A stretch of DNA of 62,836 nucleotides, the filler included, from Collodictyon triciliatum (taxonomy: Eukaryota), in assembly GCA_043381765.1 (NCBI GenBank). It is 13 parts of 13 records of this genome, joined end to end, with 100 filler letters (N's around TTAATTAATTAA, not from the genome) between each part and the next. Parts side by side here need not be neighbours in the genome. Positions count along the whole stretch, not along the records: positions 1 to 5,008 come from JBHJMP010005563.1; 12 more parts are not named here. One strand, given 5' to 3'. Positions 2,050 to 50,797 of this stretch are shown here, piece by piece. Each line of letters starts with the position of its first letter. The stretch's first letter is position 1. Under the pieces are notes generated by a model. That model did no database searches. It saw only the letters and a list, made by a program, of their open reading frames with translations, and was not told the DNA's origin. The position numbers and the translations under genes were made by a program.

Positions 2050-5008
2050 ATGGGATTGAACTCAAAGTCGTTTGCAGCTCTGTTGCTGTTGGGTTAGTCA
2101 TTTATGATATTTTAATTTTTCTGATTTTATAAATTCAAATTACATAGAATTTTGATCAATATATCTTTAGGATTGATACTCCACTGCCAATTGTGTCTTG
2201 TTGAAGGACAAAGTAGTTTGATTCGCACATTGACCGGTCATACTAGTGGTGTTTGGAGTGTTGCTGTCACTCCTGATGGCTCAAAAATTGTTTCTGGGAG
2301 TTATGATAGAACAGTAAAAATCTGGAATATTTCTGATGGAGCTTTGATTCGTACATTGACCGGTCATACTGGTACTGTTTACAGTGTTGCTATTACTCCT
2401 TATGGCTCAAAAATTGTTTCTGGAAGTTCCGACAAAACAATAAAAATCTGGAATCTTTCTGATGGAGCTTTGATTCGTACATTGACCGGTCATACTAGTG
2501 GTGTTTGGAGTGTTGCTGTTACCCCTGAAGGCTCAAAAATTGTTTCCGGATGTGATGGTAAAACAGTCAAAATTTGGAATCTTTCTGATGGGGCTTTGAT
2601 TCGCACATTGACTGGCCATACTGGTACTGTTTGGAGTGTTGCTGTTACTCCTGATGGCTCAAAAATTGTTTCTGGGAGCTACGATAATGCAATCAAAATT
2701 TGGAATCTCTCTGATGGAGCTTTGATTCGCACATTGACTGGCCATACTGGTACTGCTCGGAGTGTTGCTGTTACTCCTGATGGCTCAAAAATTGTTTCTG
2801 GGAGCAGTGATAGAACAGTCAAAATTTGGAATCTCTCTGATGGAGCTTTGATTCGTACGTTGACTGGCCATACTGATTATGTTGAGAGTGTTGCTGTTAC
2901 TCCTGATGGCTCAAAAATCGTTTCTGGAAGCTGGGATAAAACAATCAAAATTAGGAATCTTTCTAATGGAGCTTTGATTCGCACATTGGCTGGCCATACT
3001 AGTGATGTTTACGGTGTTGCTGTTGCTCCTGATGGCTCAAAAATTGTTTCTGGAAGTGTTGATGAAACAATCAAAATCTGGGCACTTTGTGTTGCTGGTC
3101 AGTTTTATGATTCAGTCTCAAAGTCTTGTCAACTATGCCCATCCGGTAGCTACAGTGCTGGAGGAACGTCATCTTGCAATCTATGCCCAAGTGGCACATA
3201 CAACCCATTAACAGGTTCTACAAATGTTGGTGCTTGTCTTTCATGCGCAGCTGGAACATACAACCCATCAACAGGTTCTACAAATGTTGGTGCTTGTCTT
3301 TCATGCGCAGCTGGAACATACAACCCATCAACAGGTCAGTCTGCTTGTCTTTCATGCGCAGCTGGCACATACAATCCATCAACTGGTTCTACAAGTGTTG
3401 GAGCCTGTATTTTTTGCGAAGAAGGAAAATATAATAGCAAAACTGGTCAGCTATCGTGCCCTAATTGCGAACCAGGAACATATAGTCCCTCAAAAGGACA
3501 GACATCGTGTTTTGACTGCCCATTAGGTTTCTACAATCAGGAATCAGGAAAAACATTTTGCACACCATGCGGCCCAGGAACGTATTCGAATTCGACAAAA
3601 GGTAAATCTTGTGAAAAATGTCCAGCCGGAACTTTTAATCCAAATGTTGCGTCACCCAACATAACTAACTGTCTGCCATGTCCTCAAGGAAGATACTCAT
3701 CAAAATCAGGCGAATCAACATGTGAACTTTGTCAATCTGGTTCTTACAATCAATATCCAGGTCAGATTGGGTGCACTAATTGTACTGATGGAACTTACAA
3801 TCCTAGATTTGGTTCAACAAGCCAGGCATCATGTATTAAATGTTCGGTAGGTAGTTATGGTAATAAACAAAGAGAAGAATGCATATCGTGCCCAGCTGGA
3901 ACATTCAACAATAAAACTGGTTCATTCAACCAATCGTCATGCATTTCATGTCACAACGGAAGCTACAGCTCAGAAAGAAGCGCAGCATGCAGTTTATGCT
4001 TATCAGGATTCTATCAAAAAGAAGAAATAACAAAAGACTCGAAATCATGCCAAGCTTGTCCGAAAGGCTCATTCAACTCAAACTCCGGCTCATATGGAAA
4101 CAAATCATGTACTGAATGTCCACAAGGTACTTGGAATGATAAGGATGGTCAAGCATCATGCACTTCGTGTCCAGCTGGGACATTCAACAATAAAACTGGC
4201 TCATTCAACCAATCGTCATGCATTTCATGTCACAACGGAACCTACAGCTCAGAAAGAAGCTCATCGTGCAGTTTATGCTCACCAGGATTCTATCAAAAAG
4301 AGGGAATCTCAAAAGACTCGAAATCATGCCAAGCTTGTCCGAAAGGCACATACAACACAAACTTCGGCTCACATGGCGACGAATCATGCATTGAATGTCC
4401 ACAAGGCACTTGGAATGATAAGGATGGTCAAGCGTCATGCACATCATGTCCAGCGGGTACATACAATAATAAAACTGGCGCATTGAATATATCACAATGT
4501 ATTGAGTGCGCAAATGGAAGCTATAGCTCAGAAAGAAGCGCTTCATGCAGCTTATGCTCATCAGGATACTATCAAAAAGATGGAATCACAAAAGACTCGA
4601 AATCATGCCAAGCTTGTCCAAAAGGAACATTCAACTTAAACTCCGGCTCTTATGGAAACAAATCATGCATTAAATGTCCACAAGGCACTTGGAATGATAG
4701 AGATGGTCAAGTATCATGCACATCATGTCCAGCTGGTACATTCAACGATAAAACTGGCTCATTCAATCAATCATCATGCATTTCATGTCCAAGTGGAAGC
4801 TACAGCTCAGCTGGAAGTGCATCATGCAGCTCATGTTTATCAGGATTCTATCAAAAAGAAGAAATAATCAAAGATTCAAAATCGTGCTATGCTTGTCCAA
4901 AAGGCACATTCAACTCAAACTCCGGCTCATATGGAAACAAATCATGTATCGAATGTCCACAAGGTACTTGGAATGATAGAGATGGTCAAGCATCATGCAC
5001 ATCATGTC
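2050..5008 (+). CDS. Signal peptide + 7 highly similar WD40 repeats + Cys-rich (GCC2_GCC3/ephrin-receptor-like CxxC) repeat protein; 3' partial
   Basis: Exon 1 is 2050-2092 (ATG GGA TTG AAC...), followed by a GT-AG intron at 2093-2170 (gttagt...tttag). It joins in frame to the 970-aa ORF, giving MGLNSKSFAALLLLGLILHCQLCLVEG|QSS. Seven GH...W(N) repeats span 2218-3081, then CPxGTY/CxxC repeats run to the contig end. Confidence 0.9.
2218..3081 (+). repeat. 7 x 126-bp (42-aa) WD40 tandem repeat with high internal identity
   Basis: The consensus LIRTLTGHTxxVxSVAVTPDGSKIVSGSxDxTxKIWNLSDGA is repeated, with similarity visible at the DNA level; the last unit stops at the Trp. Confidence 0.95.
3889..5008 (+). 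repeat. About 4 x 279-bp (93-aa, 10 Cys) coding tandem repeat
   Basis: The CPAGTFNNKTGSFNQSSCISC...GQASCTS unit recurs at 279-bp spacing (3889, 4168, ...). Confidence 0.95.
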
Positions 5009-5108
5009 NNNNNNNNNNNNNNNNNNNNNNNNNNNNNNNNNNNNNNNNNNNNTTAATTAATTAANNNNNNNNNNNNNNNNNNNNNNNNNNNNNNNNNNNN
5101 NNNNNNNN
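5009..5108. other. Artificial contig spacer (44 N + TTAATTAATTAA + 44 N), recurring about every 5.1 kb (12 in the window)
   Basis: An identical linker with stops in all six frames starts at 5053, 10159, 15265, 20371, 25487, 30591, 35695, 40798, 45900, 51001, 56097 and 61193. Confidence 0.99.
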
Positions 5109-5208: not shown

Positions 5209-8200
5209 TTGCGCAATGAATCCTTTGTCGTCAGAACCACCAGCAACATTATTCTTAATGATAATATTAGAACAGGGCGTTCCCTTTTGCACCGCACATA
5301 TATCGTAGTTTGCAATGATGACAGTTTCTTCAGGATTGAAGAATGCTACAATGAAGTAAAACCGTGGATTGCAATTTAACATCTTTGCAGTGAAAAAGAT
5401 TAATCAATATATCTTGCACCATGGCAAACCTGAATTATCGAAGGAACCTGTGACCAAGTTGTGTGTGATTTCAACATTAGATGCTGACCGAAGAATCACC
5501 GATGAGAGAATGGTCTTGTATATAACGTTATGGGATAATGTTCCTGGCGTTTTCTCGATATAAACGGCAGCGTTGAAAGAGTCATGAATTGAAGAGTTCA
5601 CTATTGAGAATGAGGTCGAGGAAATGGCATCGACTGCTGAGCGGAGTGTCAAGTACTGCCCACAATTTGAAACTTCAACATTGTACATGGTAAGCACCCC
5701 AGACCTGAAAAACTACAAAATAGGTTTGATAGTCTTGTCAGTAACTGTGGCGAACAAAGAGGGGCGATAGATATGTTCAGAATTCATTAGAGAACACAAT
5801 TTCATACTTCATCATCTTGGAACGAGCTCGACAGTATGTGGCAACCAATCTTATCGGGGTCAATACTCCCAGACAGTTTTACATTTCTAGATCTGTAGAG
5901 TGAAATAAATAGATATTAAATATGCTTATAAATATTACTCCAGCAAAAGTGTGGACAGAGGAAATAAAATCTTAAAAGGGGTTACAAATCTTGTGAATTT
6001 TGGTCAAGCGGGAAGGGGAAAAAGAAACAATCTGTTCAGGCTTATCACTCACAACAATCCAACTTCAGCTCGAATTTCGATTGAAAATCCTTTTTCGGTT
6101 TGTGTAGATGGAGCACCATAGTGACCATTCACAAGGGGTGTGGCAAGATTAATTGTGCGGGAGTCTGCAGACACCGACAAGATGACAACAACTTCTTGAC
6201 TTTTCTGGGGCATATCAGTGGACGTGATGATGATACTCTGTCCTGCTATCCAGTTCACCGGATCGCAGAGCGTTATACTATTGTCACCCTTGTGCGATGG
6301 CTTTATATATATGAGAATGGGGTGGTGGGTCCAATTTAATAAGGAACAATTTTTGCACTACACGATTGTAAATTAAACCCTTATTCGTATTTGGGTTATT
6401 AGCAAATAAATCACCTTGCACAGCCGAGTCCATGAGGGAGCAAACGGGTAGCCATACAAGAATGTACTTCCAAAGTTTGCTAGTACCTTAGCACCCGCAT
6501 CGATGTCATCTGATATGAGCAATGGGAACGAGTTAATGTCCCCATTGAATATGACACTAACCGTATGGTTGTATGGAACAGGCGATGTTTGGGAGCCAAT
6601 AGTGAAATTCCCTCCTCGCACAAACAGGGTTTCGACTTGCAGAGAAGATGATATTCTATAATCCCGATGATTTCGAGATCGATGGTGATATTGAGAAGAG
6701 ATATCCAAAAAAATAATAAATTAAAATGCACAATGCCATTACAATATGAGTAATGATATACTTGTTTCTAGTGATTTGATGTTGAAGAGTGTATTCAATT
6801 TAACCTGGTTCCGTTAATGATGAGCTCCCCTTCAATATAAAGATTTCCAAGCTTTGGAGGGTCTAAATCTAGAATGACATGCCATCCGTACGGAATCAAA
6901 ACATCATCACCTGCTTTAGGCAGCTTCTTATCGGGCCACATTGTTGCGTTTGACCACATTCTGAAGAAGTTTTCATTTTTGTCCACAACTGGTGGTTTGA
7001 GGCATCCTGTTGCCGGACATAAGAATCCCTGAATCGTTAGAGTCGATTGCGGCCCATTGCCTGAAATTAGAACTGTTAAAGTGCGGATGTCCTTGTTGTG
7101 GAAGAATGACCCAGTTTGATTTGTGACGGTAGGTATCTCATTGAACTCCAGTGTCGGACGGCCATCTTGAGTTATAGTGAAATGATCGATGAAAGAGAAG
7201 TACGGAAAAGTCAGGTAATACCTAGATAGAATATTATTAGTGGGCTTTAGTGGTTGTTTTTTTTTTTGAGGTCGATTCAAAGATTTGTAGAAATTTATAT
7301 GCTCGCTACCCAAGAAAATTCTCAACAAATATCATATTTGATAAGTCTCTGGTGTTGTGGGTTATATATTTTTTTGGAAGTAGATCGTGACGGCGTCTTT
7401 AACATACCAATCTCCAGAGGACATGTAACTGGCTTGTAGCTTGAGATTCATGAAGTCGGAATTGGAATTGATTCTCACTGTATAATTTTGGTTCGTTGCC
7501 ATGCCAATAGCCCACCCACGATTGGGATCTTTGCTCTTTCTCCAAGGTACTCTTGACAAGTCATTTGGGGTCTGGGAGTTTGTATTTCCAATAAGTAGGT
7601 CCTAATACCGTGGATTTTTTTTTTAAAAAAAAAAAAATTAAAAAAAAAAACGGGTATCTGAGGTCACGTGTAATACAAGAGAAATTACTATTCGAGGGTA
7701 GGATCTGCTGGAATCGAAAAAAAAAAAATGTGTATTGTTATCTAATGTTATTTATCTTTTACTGTATTTGTTAAGTTTTAACGAACCATGAAATCTAGAG
7801 TTCCTTGAGGCTCCTGACCGAAAATTGCTAGTCTTCGAATACGAACTCCTGGTTGACAAACGAGACCATCCATGACAGAGTCTTTGTGGCAGTAGTCGTT
7901 GATATAATTGTGAGGCCAGAAATAAGTGGCAAATCCCCCAGCAGCTCCTGTCAGTGTGCCATCCAAATCATGGAAAATACCCTGAGCAACGAGGTGAGTT
8001 AAATCAAACTGTTGAGGCTATCTGTTTCGTTATCGTACAGAGCGGGGGAGTAATTCGTCTAAACCTTTCATACAAAACCAGGATGATATCTGAGTTGAAA
8101 AAGGAAATGAAAAACTACATGGCTCAAGCGTACAAGTATTACCTTGAAAGGGAATCCCCACACAACTTTCTGATCTGTATTTATAAATTGAAGTCCTGAC

Positions 8201-9875
8201 ATTGTTAATGTTCGTGCATCATTGTCTGTAGAGGCCGGATGTGTGCAAGCACTGCATGAGCTTAGGGCCTAAAAGTAATGATATTCATTTATTAATTTAT
8301 TATACTATTTCACTTGAGAACTTTTGGAAAAGATAGTAAACTGAGGTGATGAGATATTGTTGAAATGCATAAAGCTTGAGTGCGTGGCTGGATATGTGCT
8401 ACTAACCCTGGATGATGAGGGGAAGTTTACGAAAGTAATATTACTGATGGAGTACCGGTCAGCACGGGGGCCAAAATAACCTGTTATGTGTATATTTGTT
8501 GACATGGTTGATTAGTTAGTGGATTCCTTTGCGTTACTTTTTGTAAATTAAAGGCCATTACATGAAGGGAGAGGATGTACTATTTTACAGCGTGGGACAT
8601 ACCTGTAGAGCCCGGCATTATGGGGCCACCGAAAGTATTATTTGAATTTCCAACAATTATCGCATTCATGGTGGTGGCATAACCTTGCTCAACAAAAACT
8701 TCAGAGATTTCCATTCCGCGAGTATTATCTTAATCATAAACGAGGGGGATCATTTAATATTTTTTTTAGTTTTTCTTCTAATAATTGGGGTTGGAAAACT
8801 CTTTGTTTTTTTTTAAAGCAAACTTGCTTTTAAATACATACCAGCAATTTTGAAGTTGACGAACTTGATTCCTCCAACAAATGAGCCTATGACTCCATTT
8901 TTAAGGTTTTTATAGGCAGTAAAGTTGTAGAAATATGCTTCCAAAGGGGGATTATATGAATTGAATATTGGGCCGCATGGATTGGTCAAAGGGGTAAACT
9001 GGTGGAATATTCGTAGCCCATATTTGACATTTGAATGGGCCGAATTTCCAATGAATGATCCAAGCGGGTTTCCTGGAGGACACACTGATTTCGTTGCTGA
9101 AGGGCCTGTTGGATTTGGTTGTAAGTCAAACCAAAAACCATACCTTTCACTACCAGCCGCTGTATTATTTATGAAGTGATTGTCCGGGTTTGTTATCTAT
9201 TGATTTTATGTTATAAAGTTATGAAATATGCATGATGTGGGAGCAACAACCTCATGTGACTAATAAACAGAAATGAAGAATAGGGTATGCATGAAAAAAT
9301 AGATGAAAAAAAAAGCGAGAAATTAAACAAAACTGCTGTATACCCAAAAGGTAGCAGGTGTTTGGTCAGTAGTGAGTAAGCTGTTGGAGACTTTTGTTAC
9401 CAGACCAAGGTTGTTGGTCAGAATATTGTCAGTTTCTATGGCATCTTCGATAAAGAATGTGTGTCCAAAGACATTGAAAGCGATGTTGTTGTCGATTCTA
9501 TAGAATTATTTGAGTATTTGATAAGGTCAGAACGAGAAGATTTCATTCTTTTTTTCAGAAAAAAAGCTTGAAGAGATAATATTGGTGGGAATGTATTAAT
9601 TATTTTAACGATTGTTTAGTTTATTTTTTTAAAAAAAAAATATTCCATTAATACCAGTGATGAGGAAAGAAATGGAGAAAAGTATACTTCAATTGATGAA
9701 CTCCGTGTATCGTGAAGGCGCGATTATATGTATCATGTACACTGCATCCCTTCACAAAGCTTTGACCAACAATGCCGATCATATGGAAATGAATCGGGTA
9801 TCTTCCTAGTCGGAATGCTTGTCCTGCTTGTGCAACTTCGACGAAAGAAAGTCTTCCCACAGTGGATTCATCTCC
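5209..9875 (-). CDS. Fibrocystin-L/PKHD1L1-like protein (G8 domain + parallel beta-helix repeats), multi-exon, partial at both ends
   Basis: Spliced GT-AG exons give AGQAFRLGRYPIHFHMIG, HTFFIEDAIETDN, FWITNPDN, the G8 start WSNATMWPDKKLPKAGDDVLIPYGWHVILD, and IRAEVGLL. Confidence 0.88.
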
Positions 9876-10214
9876 CTTTGATAGTTCCAGAGAAAAATGA
9901 CAAATAAAAATAAGATAAATGGAAACTCACAAAGTAGTTCAATTTCATGTATAATCTGGAAAGCTATAAAATAAGAAATAGTAACATATATTATATGAAT
10001 TGCTTGAATAAGATAAGAAAGAAAAGAGAAAGAGAAAGAGAAAGAGAAAGAGAAAGAGAAAGAGAAAGAGAAAGAGAAAGAGAAAGAGAAAGAGAAAGAG
10101 AAAGAGAAAGAGAANNNNNNNNNNNNNNNNNNNNNNNNNNNNNNNNNNNNNNNNNNNNTTAATTAATTAANNNNNNNNNNNNNNNNNNNNNNNNNNNNNN
10201 NNNNNNNNNNNNNN

Positions 10215-13200
10215 TTGATTGAATGAGCCAGTTTTGTTGTTGAATGTCCCAGCTGGACATGATGTGCATGATGCTTGCCCATTTTTATCATTCCAAGTAC
10301 CTTGTGGACATTCGATACATGATTTGTATCCATACGAGCCGGAGTTTGAGTTGAATGTGCCTTTTGGACAAGCATAGCATGATTTTGAGTCCTTTGTGAT
10401 TTCTTCTTTTTGATAGAATCCTGATGAACATAGACTGCATGATGCGCTTCTCTCTGAGCTGTGGCTTCCATTTGGACATGATATGCAAGATGATTGATTA
10501 AATGAGCCAGTTTTATTATTGAATCTACCAGCTGGACATGATGTGCATGACGCTTGACCATCTCTATCACTCCAAGTACCTTGTGGACACTCAATACATG
10601 ATTTGTTTCCATACGAGCCGGAGTTTGAGTTGAATGTGCCTTTTGGACATACATAACATGATTTTGAATCTTTTGTGATATCTTCTTTTTGATAGAATCC
10701 TGGTGAGCATGAGATGCATGATGAACTACCAGCTGAGCTGTAGCTTCCATCTGGACATGAAATGCATGATGATTGATTGAATGAGCCAGTTTTGTTGTTG
10801 AATGTCCCAGCTGGACATGATGTGCATGATGCTTGCCCATTTTTATCATTCCAAGTACCTTGTGGACATTCGATGCATGATTTGTTTCCATGTGAGCCGA
10901 AGTTTGAGTTGAATGCGCCTTTTGGACAAGAATAGCATGATTTTGAATCTTTTGTGATTCCTTCTTTTTGATAGAATCCTGATGAGCATAAGCTGCATGA
11001 AGAGCTTCCAGCTGAGCTATAGCTCCCATCTGGACATGAAATGCATGATGATTGATTGAATGAGCCAGTTTTGTTGTTGAATGTCCCAGCTGGACATGAT
11101 GTGCATGATGCTTGACCCTCTCTATCATTCCAAGTACCTTGTGGACATTCGATACATGATGCGTTTCCATATGAGCCGGAGTTTGAGTTGAATGTGCCTT
11201 TTGGACAGGCATGGCATGATTGTGAGTCTTTTATGATTTCTTCTTTTTGATAGAATCCTGATAAACATGAAGTGCATGATGCGCTTCTTTCTGAGCTGTA
11301 GCTTCCGTTTGAACATGAAATGCATGATAATTGATTGAATGAGCCAGTTTTATTGTTGAATGTACCAGCTGGACACGATGCGCATGATGCTTGACCATCT
11401 CTATCATTCCAAGTACCTTGTGGACATTCGATACATGATTTGTCTCCATATGAGCCGGAGTTTGAGTTGAATGTGCCTTTTGGACAGGCATGGCATGATT
11501 GTGAGTCTTTTTTTATTCCATCTTTTTGATAGAATCCTGGTAGGCACAAACTACATGATGAGCTTCTTTCTGAGCTGTAGCTTCCGTTTGGACATGAAAT
11601 GCATGATGATTGATCAAATGAATCAGTTTTGTTGTTATATGTACCAGCTGGACACGATGCGCATGATGCTTGACCATCTCTATCATTCCAAGTACCTTGT
11701 GGACATTCAATACATGATTTGTTGCCATATGAGCCGGAGTTTGAGTTGAACGTGCCTTTTGGACAAGCATAGCACGAACTTGAGTCTTTTGTGATATCTT
11801 CTTTTTGGTAGAATCCTGATAAGCAAAGGCTGCATGATGCACTTCCAGCTGAGCTATAGCTTCCATTTGGACATTCAATGCATGATGATTGGTTAAATGA
11901 GCCAGTTTTATTGTTGAATGTACCAGCTGGGCATGATGTGCATGATGCTTGACCATCTCTATCATTCCAAGTACCTTGTGGACATCCAATGCATGATTTG
12001 TTTCCATATGAGCCGGAGTTTGAGTTGAATGTGCCTTTTGGACAAGCACCGCATGATTTTGAGTCTTTTATGATCTCTTCTTTTTGATAGAATCCTGATA
12101 AGCATAAGCTGCATGATGCACTTCCAGCTGAGCTATAGCTTCCATTTGGACATTCAATGCATGATGATTGTTTGTATGAACCAGTTTTATTATTGTATGT
12201 ACCAACCGGGCATGATGTGCATGATGCTTGACTATCTCTATCATTCCAAGTACCTTGTGGACATTCGATGCATGATTTGTTACCATATAAGCCAGAGTTT
12301 GAGTTGAATGTGCCTTTTGGACAAGCGTGGCATGATTTTGAGTCTTTTGTGATATCTTCTTTTTGGTAGAATCCTGATAAGCATAAGCTGCATGATGAGC
12401 TTCTTTCTGAGCTATAGCTTCCATTCGGACATGAAATGCATGAAGAATTATTGGATGAACCAGTTTTGTTGTTGAATGAACCAGCTGGACATGATGTGCA
12501 TGATGCTTGACCATCTCTATCATTCCAAGTGCCTTGTGGACATTCAATACATGATTTGTTGCCATATGAGCCGGAGTTTGAGTTGAATGTGCCTTCTGGA
12601 CAAGCGTAGCATGATTTCGAGCCTTTCATTATTCCTTCTTTTTGATAGAATCCTGATAAGCATAAGCTGCATGATGAGCTTCTTTCTGGGCTGTAGCTTC
12701 CATTTGCACATGAAATGCATGATGATTGATTGAATGAGCCAGTTTTGTTGTTAAATGTCCCAACTGGACATGATGTGCATGATACTTGACCATCTCTATC
12801 ATTCCAAGTACCTTGTGGACATCCAATGCATGATTTGTTTCCATGTGAGCCGGAGTTTGAGTTGAATGTGCCTTTTGGACAACCATAGCATGATTGAGAA
12901 TCTTTTATTATACCTTCTTTTTGATAGAATCCTGATAAGCATAAGCTGCATGATGAGCTTCTTTCTGGGCTGTAGCTTCCATTTGAACATGAAATGCATG
13001 ATGATTGGTCAAATGAGCCAGTTTTATCGTTGAATGTACCAGCTGGACAAGATGTGCATGACACTTGACCATCTATATCATTCCAAGTACCTTGTGGACA
13101 TTCGATACATGATTTGTTGCCATATGAGCCGGAGTTTGAGTTGAATGTGCCTTTTGGACAACCATAGCATGATTGAGAATCTTTTATTATACCTTCTTTT

Positions 13201-49472: not shown

Positions 49473-50689
49473 ATGTCGACAAAGAAAGCACAAGGAAAAA
49501 GCGCAAGTCAAACACAAAGCAAACCGCAAAGCTCAAGCCCAAGCTCAAGTAACAGTAGCGCCTCCAAGACAAAGAAAGAAGGCAACGCAAAGTCCCAAGG
49601 TAGAAGCTTACCATGGCCATTATTTCCCCCTCTTTTCATCGATCTTGAAATCAACACTGTTTCCTGCTTAAAGCAGAACATATTACAATTATCACGCACG
49701 ACTCTTGCATTGAGCACCGTGGACAGCGACCGGTACCCTGCACATACTCTCCATACTCACCGCTTGAATCTGCCTCAGTTCACGGACTGGACGATTGGTC
49801 CACATCCTGGGAGGAATGCGTGCGCACTGGGCGCTCCTGGGGTGGGCGCAGCTTCGGCGGCCGTGGAATCCAAAAGATCAAAGGCCGAGCCTCGGACATC
49901 CGCGTGGAGAACATCACACTGGAGACACCGACCGGATTAACACTCCTTTCCAACGCAACGCTCCGTCTGAGTGCACGAACGAGATACGGGCTGATTGGGC
50001 GAAACGGGTCGGGAAAAACCACCTTTCTTACCAGGATTGCGCACTCGGCTTTGCCTGGGTTTCCTCTCTGGATTAGCACCGTGTGGGTTGGGCAGGAGAT
50101 TGAGGGGACCGAACGCCTGCCTGTTGACCAGCTCCTCGAGTCCATGCGGCAAGCTCGCTTACGCCGTGTTGACCCCCTTGGGGATGCATCGGCAAAGAGC
50201 CAGAGTGGTGCCAGTGGTGATTATCAGGAAGACCAATACGGCGATGAAGGAGATGAAGGAGAAGAAGATTATGATGCAGAGAACTACGACGACGATGAGG
50301 ATAGCGACGGCTTTGACGAGGAGTTTGATCAACTTCCCATGCCAGAGAAGGCCATGCGTGCGCTCAAAACAGTGGGGTTGACTGAGAAGATGCTTGAGAA
50401 GCCAACCTCCCAGCTTTCAGGAGGGAATCGTATGCGTGTGGCTCTTGCAGAGGCCCTTGTCATGCAACCAGATCTCCTCCTTCTGGACGAACCGACCAAC
50501 CACTTGGACTTTGCTGGAATCCGTTGGCTTGAAAAGTTCCTGACAGAGACGTATAAAGGCACCGTAATCATCGTCTCTCATGATAGAGTATTTCTTAACA
50601 ACGTTGTCAATGAAATCATCTATCTGCACGAGCAGCGTTTCACCCAGCACCCTGGAGATTTCGATGGTTTCCTGGAACAAACTGAAAAC
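49473..50689 (+). CDS. ABC-F family ATPase (GCN20/ABCF3-like), first NBD only; 3' partial
   Basis: RYGLIGRNGSGKTT, LSGGNRMRVALA, LLLLDEPTNHLD and IVSHDRVFLN. Intron at about 49600-49778. Confidence 0.92.
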
Positions 50690-50797
50690 GTATGTCACTT
50701 TCTTTATGCGATATTTTCTAATTAGAGAAAAATAATGACGAAAATTATATAATTGAGCGAGAAAAACAAAAAACAAAAAAACAAAAAAACAAAAAAA

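Follow-up and report, generated by a model that had tools for sequence, protein, structure and literature searches.

Can a WD40 propeller work as the binding head of a secreted protein? Propellers of the G-beta type are textbook intracellular scaffolds, and the fold is, to our knowledge, almost purely intracellular. The question is raised by a gene at positions 2050-5008 of a 62,836-nucleotide stretch of DNA from Collodictyon triciliatum (assembly GCA_043381765.1), referred to below as the window. In one continuous frame this gene encodes a head of near-identical WD40 blades and a long cysteine-rich stalk. With moderate confidence, we read its product as a very large protein of the secretory pathway in which a WD40 binding head is carried on a rod of CxxC modules, and which belongs to a small or larger family. 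The placement in the secretory pathway rests on dozens of disulfide modules together with a signal-like start.

We first consider the head. Tandem Repeats Finder (TRF) reported a 126-nucleotide period with 6.9 copies at 2217-3081 (86% matches, score 1184), and Pfam WD40 (PF00400) matched seven stretches with 261.5 bits, the cut-off being 27. An earlier reading of the window, made from the sequence only, had counted exactly seven near-identical 42-residue WD40 repeats; TRF, Pfam and a table of the aligned unit columns all arrive at this number. Mean identity between blades is 77% for the protein (range 0.64-0.86 in our own calculation) and 84% for the DNA, and synonymous divergence between blades is 0.2-0.3. 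The WD40 signature residues are well kept, with Gly-His in all seven blades and the turn Asp and the Trp each in six of seven. The residue after the Trp is mostly Asn instead of Asp, which gives rise to N-x-S sequons, and six of the seven blades carry such a sequon in the C-D loop. A single-sequence AlphaFold2 model of 420 residues, made without an alignment, folded the head into 28 strands, four per blade, arranged as a closed seven-bladed propeller. The predicted local distance difference test (pLDDT) score was 90 or higher at 249 of the 420 residues, all of them in the head, and was mostly above 90 over approximately residues 20-310. The first strand after the signal-like segment closes blade 7, as is usual for WD40 propellers. 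Foldseek superimposed the model on the seven-bladed designer WD40 7big_A with a root-mean-square deviation (rmsd) of 0.7 over 289 columns and a template modelling (TM) score of 0.98, values that describe a model, and on the Nostoc propeller 2ymu with an rmsd of 0.8 and 52% identity. By sequence, too, 2ymu matches best among the solved structures (phmmer E 2.9e-241). The ESM Atlas returned generic WD40 clusters only, with scores of at most 0.84, below the level that counts. As modelled, the head is a canonical closed seven-bladed propeller of the G-beta type.

The CxxC repeats that the sequence-only reading had placed directly after the blades were recovered there by two counts. Pfam Ephrin_rec_like (PF07699) matched 15 stretches of the stalk with 340.7 bits (cut-off 23.1), and the motif CxxC..G.aromatic occurs at least 34 times in a stalk that is cut at 5008. 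The 637 stalk residues include 70 cysteines, as opposed to 2 in the 296 residues of the head. Such a cysteine density is typical of extracellular, disulfide-bonded modules, and dozens of CxxC modules are unlikely to fold in the cytosol.

The window holds a paralog on a different contig (10215-15218, minus strand), with its parts in the same order. The two genes are 55% identical in the head, 59% in the proximal stalk and 84% in the distal units, and an alignment across the junction and the proximal stalk gave 62% identity over 359 residues. Further matches came from freshwater metagenomes of four studies, in which 116, 4, 195 and 117 short contigs match the gene at 85-100% likeness; pieces identical to the gene are present in one freshwater metagenome. 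We treat these contigs as relatives or other family members and not as the locus itself. In two of them (X3 and X4, from two studies) the end of a blade runs straight into the start of the stalk, with 44 and 37 letters on the shorter side. The linker in the metagenomes (matches to 2703-3084 and 2952-3084) is four residues longer and keeps Trp-Asp, where the gene here has Trp-Ala. Because the junction recurs both in the paralog, on a contig of its own, and in the metagenomes of two studies, the fusion of head to stalk is, on these alignments, real and no assembly artefact.

The differences among the seven blades are concentrated in a few columns of the 42-residue unit. Columns 11, 12, 14, 30 and 32 hold 3, 4, 4, 5 and 4 different residues, respectively, while the remaining columns hold at most 3 and mostly 1 or 2. 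Together the five columns, which were chosen post hoc, sum to 20 residue states, and about 1 in 100,000 random five-column draws was as high (100,000 draws). They are dominated by aromatic (Trp, Tyr) and charged residues (Arg, Asp, Glu). In the model, strand A has variable residues directly ahead of it and at its second residue, and the others flank the Asp after strand B. The variable residues sit in the D-A and B-C connections, and the A-B and C-D loops hardly differ between blades. The residue lists of the sequence-only reading were reproduced exactly at unit positions 11-12, 14 and 30-32, and both the column table and the mapping onto the AlphaFold2 model agree with its claim that the variable sites are clustered and not scattered over the propeller.

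Positions of this kind have been described in other WD40 proteins. The top-face contact hotspots of WD40 proteins named R1-2, R1 and D-1 (Wu 2012) are columns 12, 14 and 30 of the unit. In the HET-E and HET-D repeats, codons 7, 9, 25 and 27 are under strong positive selection and are paired around the purified codons 8 and 26 (Paoletti 2007). Shifted by five, these four codons become columns 12, 14, 30 and 32, which here surround a conserved Val and a conserved Asp. The earlier statement that the variable sites are the HET-E/HNWD positions thus applies one for one to these four columns.

We next asked whether the pattern of substitutions fits selection at these sites. By pairwise Nei-Gojobori comparison, the ratio of non-synonymous to synonymous substitution rates (dN/dS) is 4.5 at the five variable codons and 0.29 elsewhere. 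Counted as minimal changes, the variable codons have 15 non-synonymous and 2 synonymous changes and the rest 19 and 16, which corresponds to 3.0 non-synonymous state changes per variable codon versus 0.51 elsewhere; all these counts come from a single gene with seven blades. Purifying selection on the scaffold is clear, and with a dN/dS of 0.29 the gene is therefore not decaying. At the variable codons the same figures suggest diversifying selection. Fisher's test gave p = 0.028 for the codon set chosen post hoc and p = 0.055 for the four codons of Paoletti 2007 taken a priori, and the excess over the neutral expectation had a binomial p of 0.14 (computed from 17 of 18 changes counted by hand; the script counted 15 and 2).

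A dN/dS above 1 is therefore not significant by the binomial test or with the a priori set, which is compatible with a structural coat, matrix or adhesive protein, whose propeller would be a constant module for assembly or oligomerisation and whose blade differences would be loops relaxed after duplication. We consider this explanation unlikely, though it deserves to be taken seriously. The synonymous divergence shows that the blades are not very young, the paralog head lacks positions rich in aromatic residues, and long repetitive cysteine-rich arrays are typical of coat and matrix proteins. However, relaxed loops would hardly be expected to vary at three published contact positions and their immediate neighbours while the A-B and C-D loops stay nearly invariant, nor to favour Trp, Tyr and charged residues, nor to show so different a balance of non-synonymous and synonymous changes at the variable codons and in the rest of the unit.

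A further possibility is a repertoire of variable receptors in a free-living freshwater protist, in which many germline paralogs would swap blades by recombination or gene conversion, as in HNWD, and diversify them at the top-face contact codons, and in which heads on long stalks outside the cell would recognise prey, kin or non-self. Such a repertoire, if real, would be the extracellular equivalent of immune receptors built on repeats. The pattern of variability fits repeats of the HET-E type, and the internal identity of the blades, in protein and in DNA, would permit unequal exchange. The window contains two family members among 12 full-length contigs (and a cut 13th), in three of the four freshwater runs 116-195 short contigs match head and stalk at 85% likeness or more, and the distal stalk units appear homogenised between the paralogs, being far more alike than the heads and proximal stalks. 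But no exchange event was seen among these sequences, and the signal of selection at the variable codons, drawn from a single gene, is suggestive. Joints in the metagenome contigs were considered as variants in blade number; the lengths skipped are not multiples of the 126-nucleotide unit and may stem from other organisms, and we make no claim from them. Overall, we hold such a repertoire to be improbable.

The start of the gene needs a separate argument. The long frame at 2171-5008 has 979 codons without a stop, is open to the contig end and contains no Met of its own. A stop at 2122-2124 in this frame means that it cannot begin further upstream, and hence an upstream exon is required. The sequence-only reading had proposed that a missed short exon at 2050-2092 completes a start resembling a signal peptide, and the sequence features for this are in place, the splice itself being predicted. 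The ATG at 2050 has A at -3 and G at +4 and is preceded by an in-frame TAG at 2041-2043, and the exon, which ends in phase 1, would continue in phase into the long frame. The spliced start would have one Lys in a short n-region, followed by a hydrophobic core of about 19 residues across the splice junction; the 9-residue Kyte-Doolittle mean peaks at 3.19 at the junction and has dropped below 1 by residue 19 of the predicted product. Among 20 in-phase ATG-to-GT candidates within 1.2 kilobases (kb) upstream, this exon is the nearest and most economical, and the hydrophobic segment that opens exon 2, right before blade 1, is independent of the choice of exon 1. We set aside a TATAAA at 2015-2020 as evidence, as such words are common in AT-rich DNA. 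The intron style of a G8/beta-helix gene on the second contig was considered as a control for the 78-nucleotide intron and dropped, its candidate splice sites being ambiguous. A NACHT domain, which the sequence-only reading had said was lacking, was not found in the Pfam scan of the frame, nor was a HET domain, and the upstream 2 kb hold no frame longer than 70 codons.

That the locus is an artefact or encodes an intracellular protein, by misjoining of a WD40 gene to a cysteine-rich gene, by upstream nucleoside triphosphatase (NTPase) exons of a cytosolic NLR-like protein or as a pseudogene, is scarcely credible. In its favour, the assembly is very fragmented, with contigs of about 5 kb, tandem repeats tend to collapse, and the WD40 proteins nearest in sequence among the matches listed come from cyanobacteria, fungi and Reticulomyxa and are linked to NACHT, NB-ARC or a kinase. 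Against it, the junction is shared with the paralog and with metagenome contigs from two studies, the frame runs intact over 2.9 kb with its scaffold under purifying selection, no long frame precedes it in the upstream 2 kb, a hydrophobic segment stands right before blade 1, and CxxC modules by the dozen should not fold in the cytosol.

For the stalked binding head that we favour, the following working can be proposed. A cleavable signal peptide would be followed by the propeller as a ligand-binding head, carried on a rod of disulfide-bonded Ephrin_rec_like modules. Since the strands of a WD40 blade form a meander, one face should hold the D-A and B-C connections and the opposite face the A-B and C-D loops. 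The chain enters the propeller through a strand D and leaves it through strand C of the last blade, and therefore both chain ends should be on the bottom face, opposite the variable positions; mounted on the stalk in this way, the propeller would turn its variable top face away from the cell. With five variable positions per blade, this top face may bind an extracellular ligand such as a protein or peptide, much as cytosolic WD40 proteins do inside, whereas the scaffold and the six C-D loop sequons on the stalk-side face would be kept constant. The blades probably arose by tandem duplication and later diverged mainly at contact positions. That the protein is secreted, that its head is oriented in this way and that the head binds a ligand are what we infer from sequence.

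Several points weigh against this proposal. The splice from 2092 to 2171 and the signal peptide are predictions made from the DNA and its hydropathy. At least two of the 19 other candidates for exon 1 (1514-1556 and 1694-1721) also yield a hydrophobic start, and AT-rich DNA readily throws up hydrophobic mini-exons. Both gene copies end at contig ends, before the C-terminus. The stalk part of the AlphaFold2 model is unreliable, with pLDDT below 50 from residue 323, and therefore the geometry of head and stalk rests on topology and not on the model. Exposed loops are the least constrained part of WD40 proteins, and differences clustered there do not by themselves prove a binding role. In the paralog, the variable positions are mostly small or polar (Asn, Ser, Arg) and less typical of hotspots. 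Finally, disulfides in every blade, which the authors of the CRINKLY4 preprint regard as an adaptation to the outside, are missing from the head here.

If a secreted WD40 propeller does stand on a disulfide rod with its binding face outward, the fold has been recruited for extracellular recognition, in parallel to the recruitment of RCC1 and Kelch propellers in other protists and of an RCC1-like propeller in the plant protein CRINKLY4. Blades that differ at contact codons would then offer a natural test of whether the rules of top-face recognition and repeat diversification, known from cytosolic WD40 proteins and fungal NLRs, also hold outside the cell. Should the family turn out large and variable, a little-studied eukaryote would be seen to have a new type of surface receptor repertoire; should it be neither, a well-defined new domain combination for family databases would still be gained.

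We also asked whether the architecture occurs elsewhere. We assembled a pool of 467 proteins from the matches listed in homolog searches and in a search of 1.84 billion representatives. The whole-protein homolog search was dominated by multi-blade WD40 proteins, and the junction-profile search of the representatives by giant cysteine-rich proteins; the latter search was used only as a pool for the scan for both domains. Three or more blades were present in 176 of the 467 proteins and three or more CxxC motifs in 283. Three or more blades combined with a stalk occurred only in the gene and its paralog, and in none of the 465 other proteins among the matches listed. None of 80 metagenome loci encoding stalk relatives had a WD40 match, and a literature search retrieved no description of a pairing of WD40 with Ephrin_rec_like. 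The protein and locus sets are score-ranked samples obtained without an architecture query, and the negatives speak for these samples and not for an absence elsewhere. As far as could be seen, a G-beta-type WD40 head on an Ephrin_rec_like stalk is a new domain combination. The claim of the sequence-only reading that this is not a described family stands for the exact combination, which was found nowhere else in the 467 proteins and 80 loci; it was overstated in view of CRINKLY4, of the RCC1 and Kelch stalk proteins and of the published hotspot variability.

Three proteins of the pool were examined as two-domain candidates and rejected. P0210 has WD40 only, and in P0376 we took a single weak match to a blade (E 0.047), amid 62 cysteine motifs, as chance. 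In P0461 (1346 residues) Pfam found no WD40 in the head. This protein has a near-identical Cys-Val-Ala-Gly motif at the start of its stalk (approximately residues 505-530) behind a 500-residue head that matches no Pfam family, and may represent another type of head on the same stalk lineage. Among the relatives of the blades are four proteins of the freshwater foraminiferan Reticulomyxa filosa annotated as NB-ARC or WD40 (P0281, P0341, P0346 and P0353), with blades 38-57% identical to those here; NB-ARC-linked WD40 proteins of this type are a weak lead to a possible cytosolic source of the head domain. The coordinates of the two genes are collected in the table.

Table. Parts of the WD40-stalk gene and of its paralog, in positions of the window
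Feature	Position	Strand	Basis or remark
Predicted exon 1	2050..2092	+	Start codon, 14 codons and one base; n-region and first half of hydrophobic core
Predicted GT-AG intron, 78 nucleotides	2093..2170	+	Donor GTTAGT at 2093, pyrimidine-rich tract, acceptor TAG ending at 2170
Start of exon 2	2171..2208	+	Second half of predicted hydrophobic core and c-region, Val at -3, Gly at -1
WD40 head, seven 42-residue blades	2215..3096	+	TRF, Pfam, AlphaFold2, Foldseek
Junction and proximal, non-tandem stalk	3088..3878	+	Pfam Ephrin_rec_like / TNFR-like CxxC modules
Distal stalk, tandem 279-nucleotide units (93 residues, ten cysteines), 4.1 copies	3879..5008	+	TRF, 85% matches, score 1619; cut by contig end
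Paralog WD40 head, more diverged	14391..15218	-	Translation, seven blade matches; first blade cut by contig end
Paralog junction and stalk, at least 74 CxxC modules	10215..14390	-	Same junction; cut by contig end

The window as a whole consists of 12 pieces of 4996-5016 bases and one cut piece, in near-falling order of length. Successive pieces are separated by 100-base spacers of the form N44-TTAATTAATTAA-N44, a six-frame stop linker (5009-5108, 10115-10214, 15221-15320 and onward). The pieces are separate contigs of about 5 kb each from a very fragmented assembly. The gene lies on the first contig (1-5008), and the break at 5009 is a contig end and not an internal scaffold gap. Because the window is a chain of separate contigs, neighbouring genes tell nothing about the context of the WD40 gene. 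The genome is AT-rich and has spliceosomal introns and long microsatellites. Simple repeats include a GA/CT-rich microsatellite of approximately 1.4 kb within 20427-21880, a 95-base poly-A run at a contig start (5109-5203) and GA, GT and ATT runs at other contig ends (10017-10114, 46000-46100 and 46700-46900), and such long simple repeats probably explain why the assembly broke into pieces of about 5 kb.

On the second contig, 5407-9926 (minus strand) holds a gene of several exons that encodes a G8 domain and two regions of the CEMIP or right-handed beta-helix type, and resembles fibrocystin and CEMIP-like extracellular proteins. We rejected a tie between this gene and the WD40 gene, as it is on a separate contig and its helix-side end is without CxxC modules. 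The tenth contig contains an intronless frame of 358 codons (49649-50725, plus strand) with an ABC transporter ATPase domain (PF00005, E 1.8e-19). Judged by eye, this frame is richer in GC than the WD40 gene, and it might come from another region of the genome or from a contaminant. A scan of the whole window against Rfam gave no match.

Two groups of known proteins resemble the gene in different respects. The first is that of the highly repetitive WD40 proteins. HET-E and HET-D of Podospora anserina (HNWD) have, like the gene here, highly similar 42-residue WD repeats in which the variable codon pairs flank a conserved Val and a conserved Asp, and in HNWD these residues form the interaction surface of the propeller (Paoletti 2007). 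However, the HNWD proteins are cytosolic and have HET and NACHT domains before the repeats, whereas here a signal-like start precedes the blades, a cysteine-rich stalk follows them and there is no NTPase. Selection and the exchange of repeats have been demonstrated for HNWD, while the gene here offers the positional match and a suggestive dN/dS. More generally, Hu et al. 2017 described, from bacteria, protists and fungi, highly repetitive WD40 proteins that are conserved except at predicted hotspot sites. The Nostoc propeller 2ymu is an example of this class. Two features of this class, an internal identity of at least 0.7 (0.77 here) and diversity at the hotspot sites, hold for the gene, and the available part of that paper makes no mention of a secreted form or a signal peptide. 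Among the matches listed, the partner domains of highly repetitive WD40s are NTPases, kinases, TIR and caspase-like domains, in place of which the gene here has the stalk.

The second group shares the design of the whole protein. CRINKLY4 (ACR4), a receptor kinase of land plants, has the same order of parts, with a signal peptide, a seven-bladed propeller that the preprint calls WD40 and a cysteine-rich TNFR-like domain; the signalling function resides in the propeller, which has a putative binding groove on its front side (CRINKLY4 preprint). Its propeller differs from the head here in having a disulfide in every blade and an N-terminal strand buried in the centre, where the present head has two cysteines in all, and its nearest folds are BLIP-II and UVR8 rather than the G-beta type. 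Moreover, CRINKLY4 has a single cysteine-rich domain, followed by a membrane helix and a kinase, as against at least 34 stalk modules here (CRINKLY4 preprint).

RCC1 or Kelch heads on an Ephrin_rec_like stalk are common among protist proteins in the databases. The RCC1, Kelch and NHL proteins with Ephrin_rec_like that we compared (P0124, P0140, P0232 and P0135) have the same design of a hydrophobic start, a propeller and a long stalk array, and P0124 (RCC1 head) and P0140 (Kelch head) combine signal-like starts with a hydrophobic tail, which in P0124 is at the end. Their stalks are 34-45% identical to the stalk here, but their heads belong to other propeller superfamilies, and near-identical blades with hotspot variation are particular to the gene here. 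In animals, propeller binding heads stand beside disulfide-rich spacers in the Sema-PSI arrangement of semaphorins and plexins, in the YWTD-EGF arrangement of low-density lipoprotein (LDL) receptors and in the Kelch propeller of attractin. The resemblance to these receptors is one of design only; the propeller families are unrelated and show no relationship in sequence. The Pfam name Beta-prop_ATRN-LZTR1 was seen in our scan. By analogy with these systems, the stalked-propeller design is not unprecedented. Placed among them, the gene product is a probable stalked-propeller surface protein with a WD40 head and, at the same time, a new setting for the highly repetitive WD40s.

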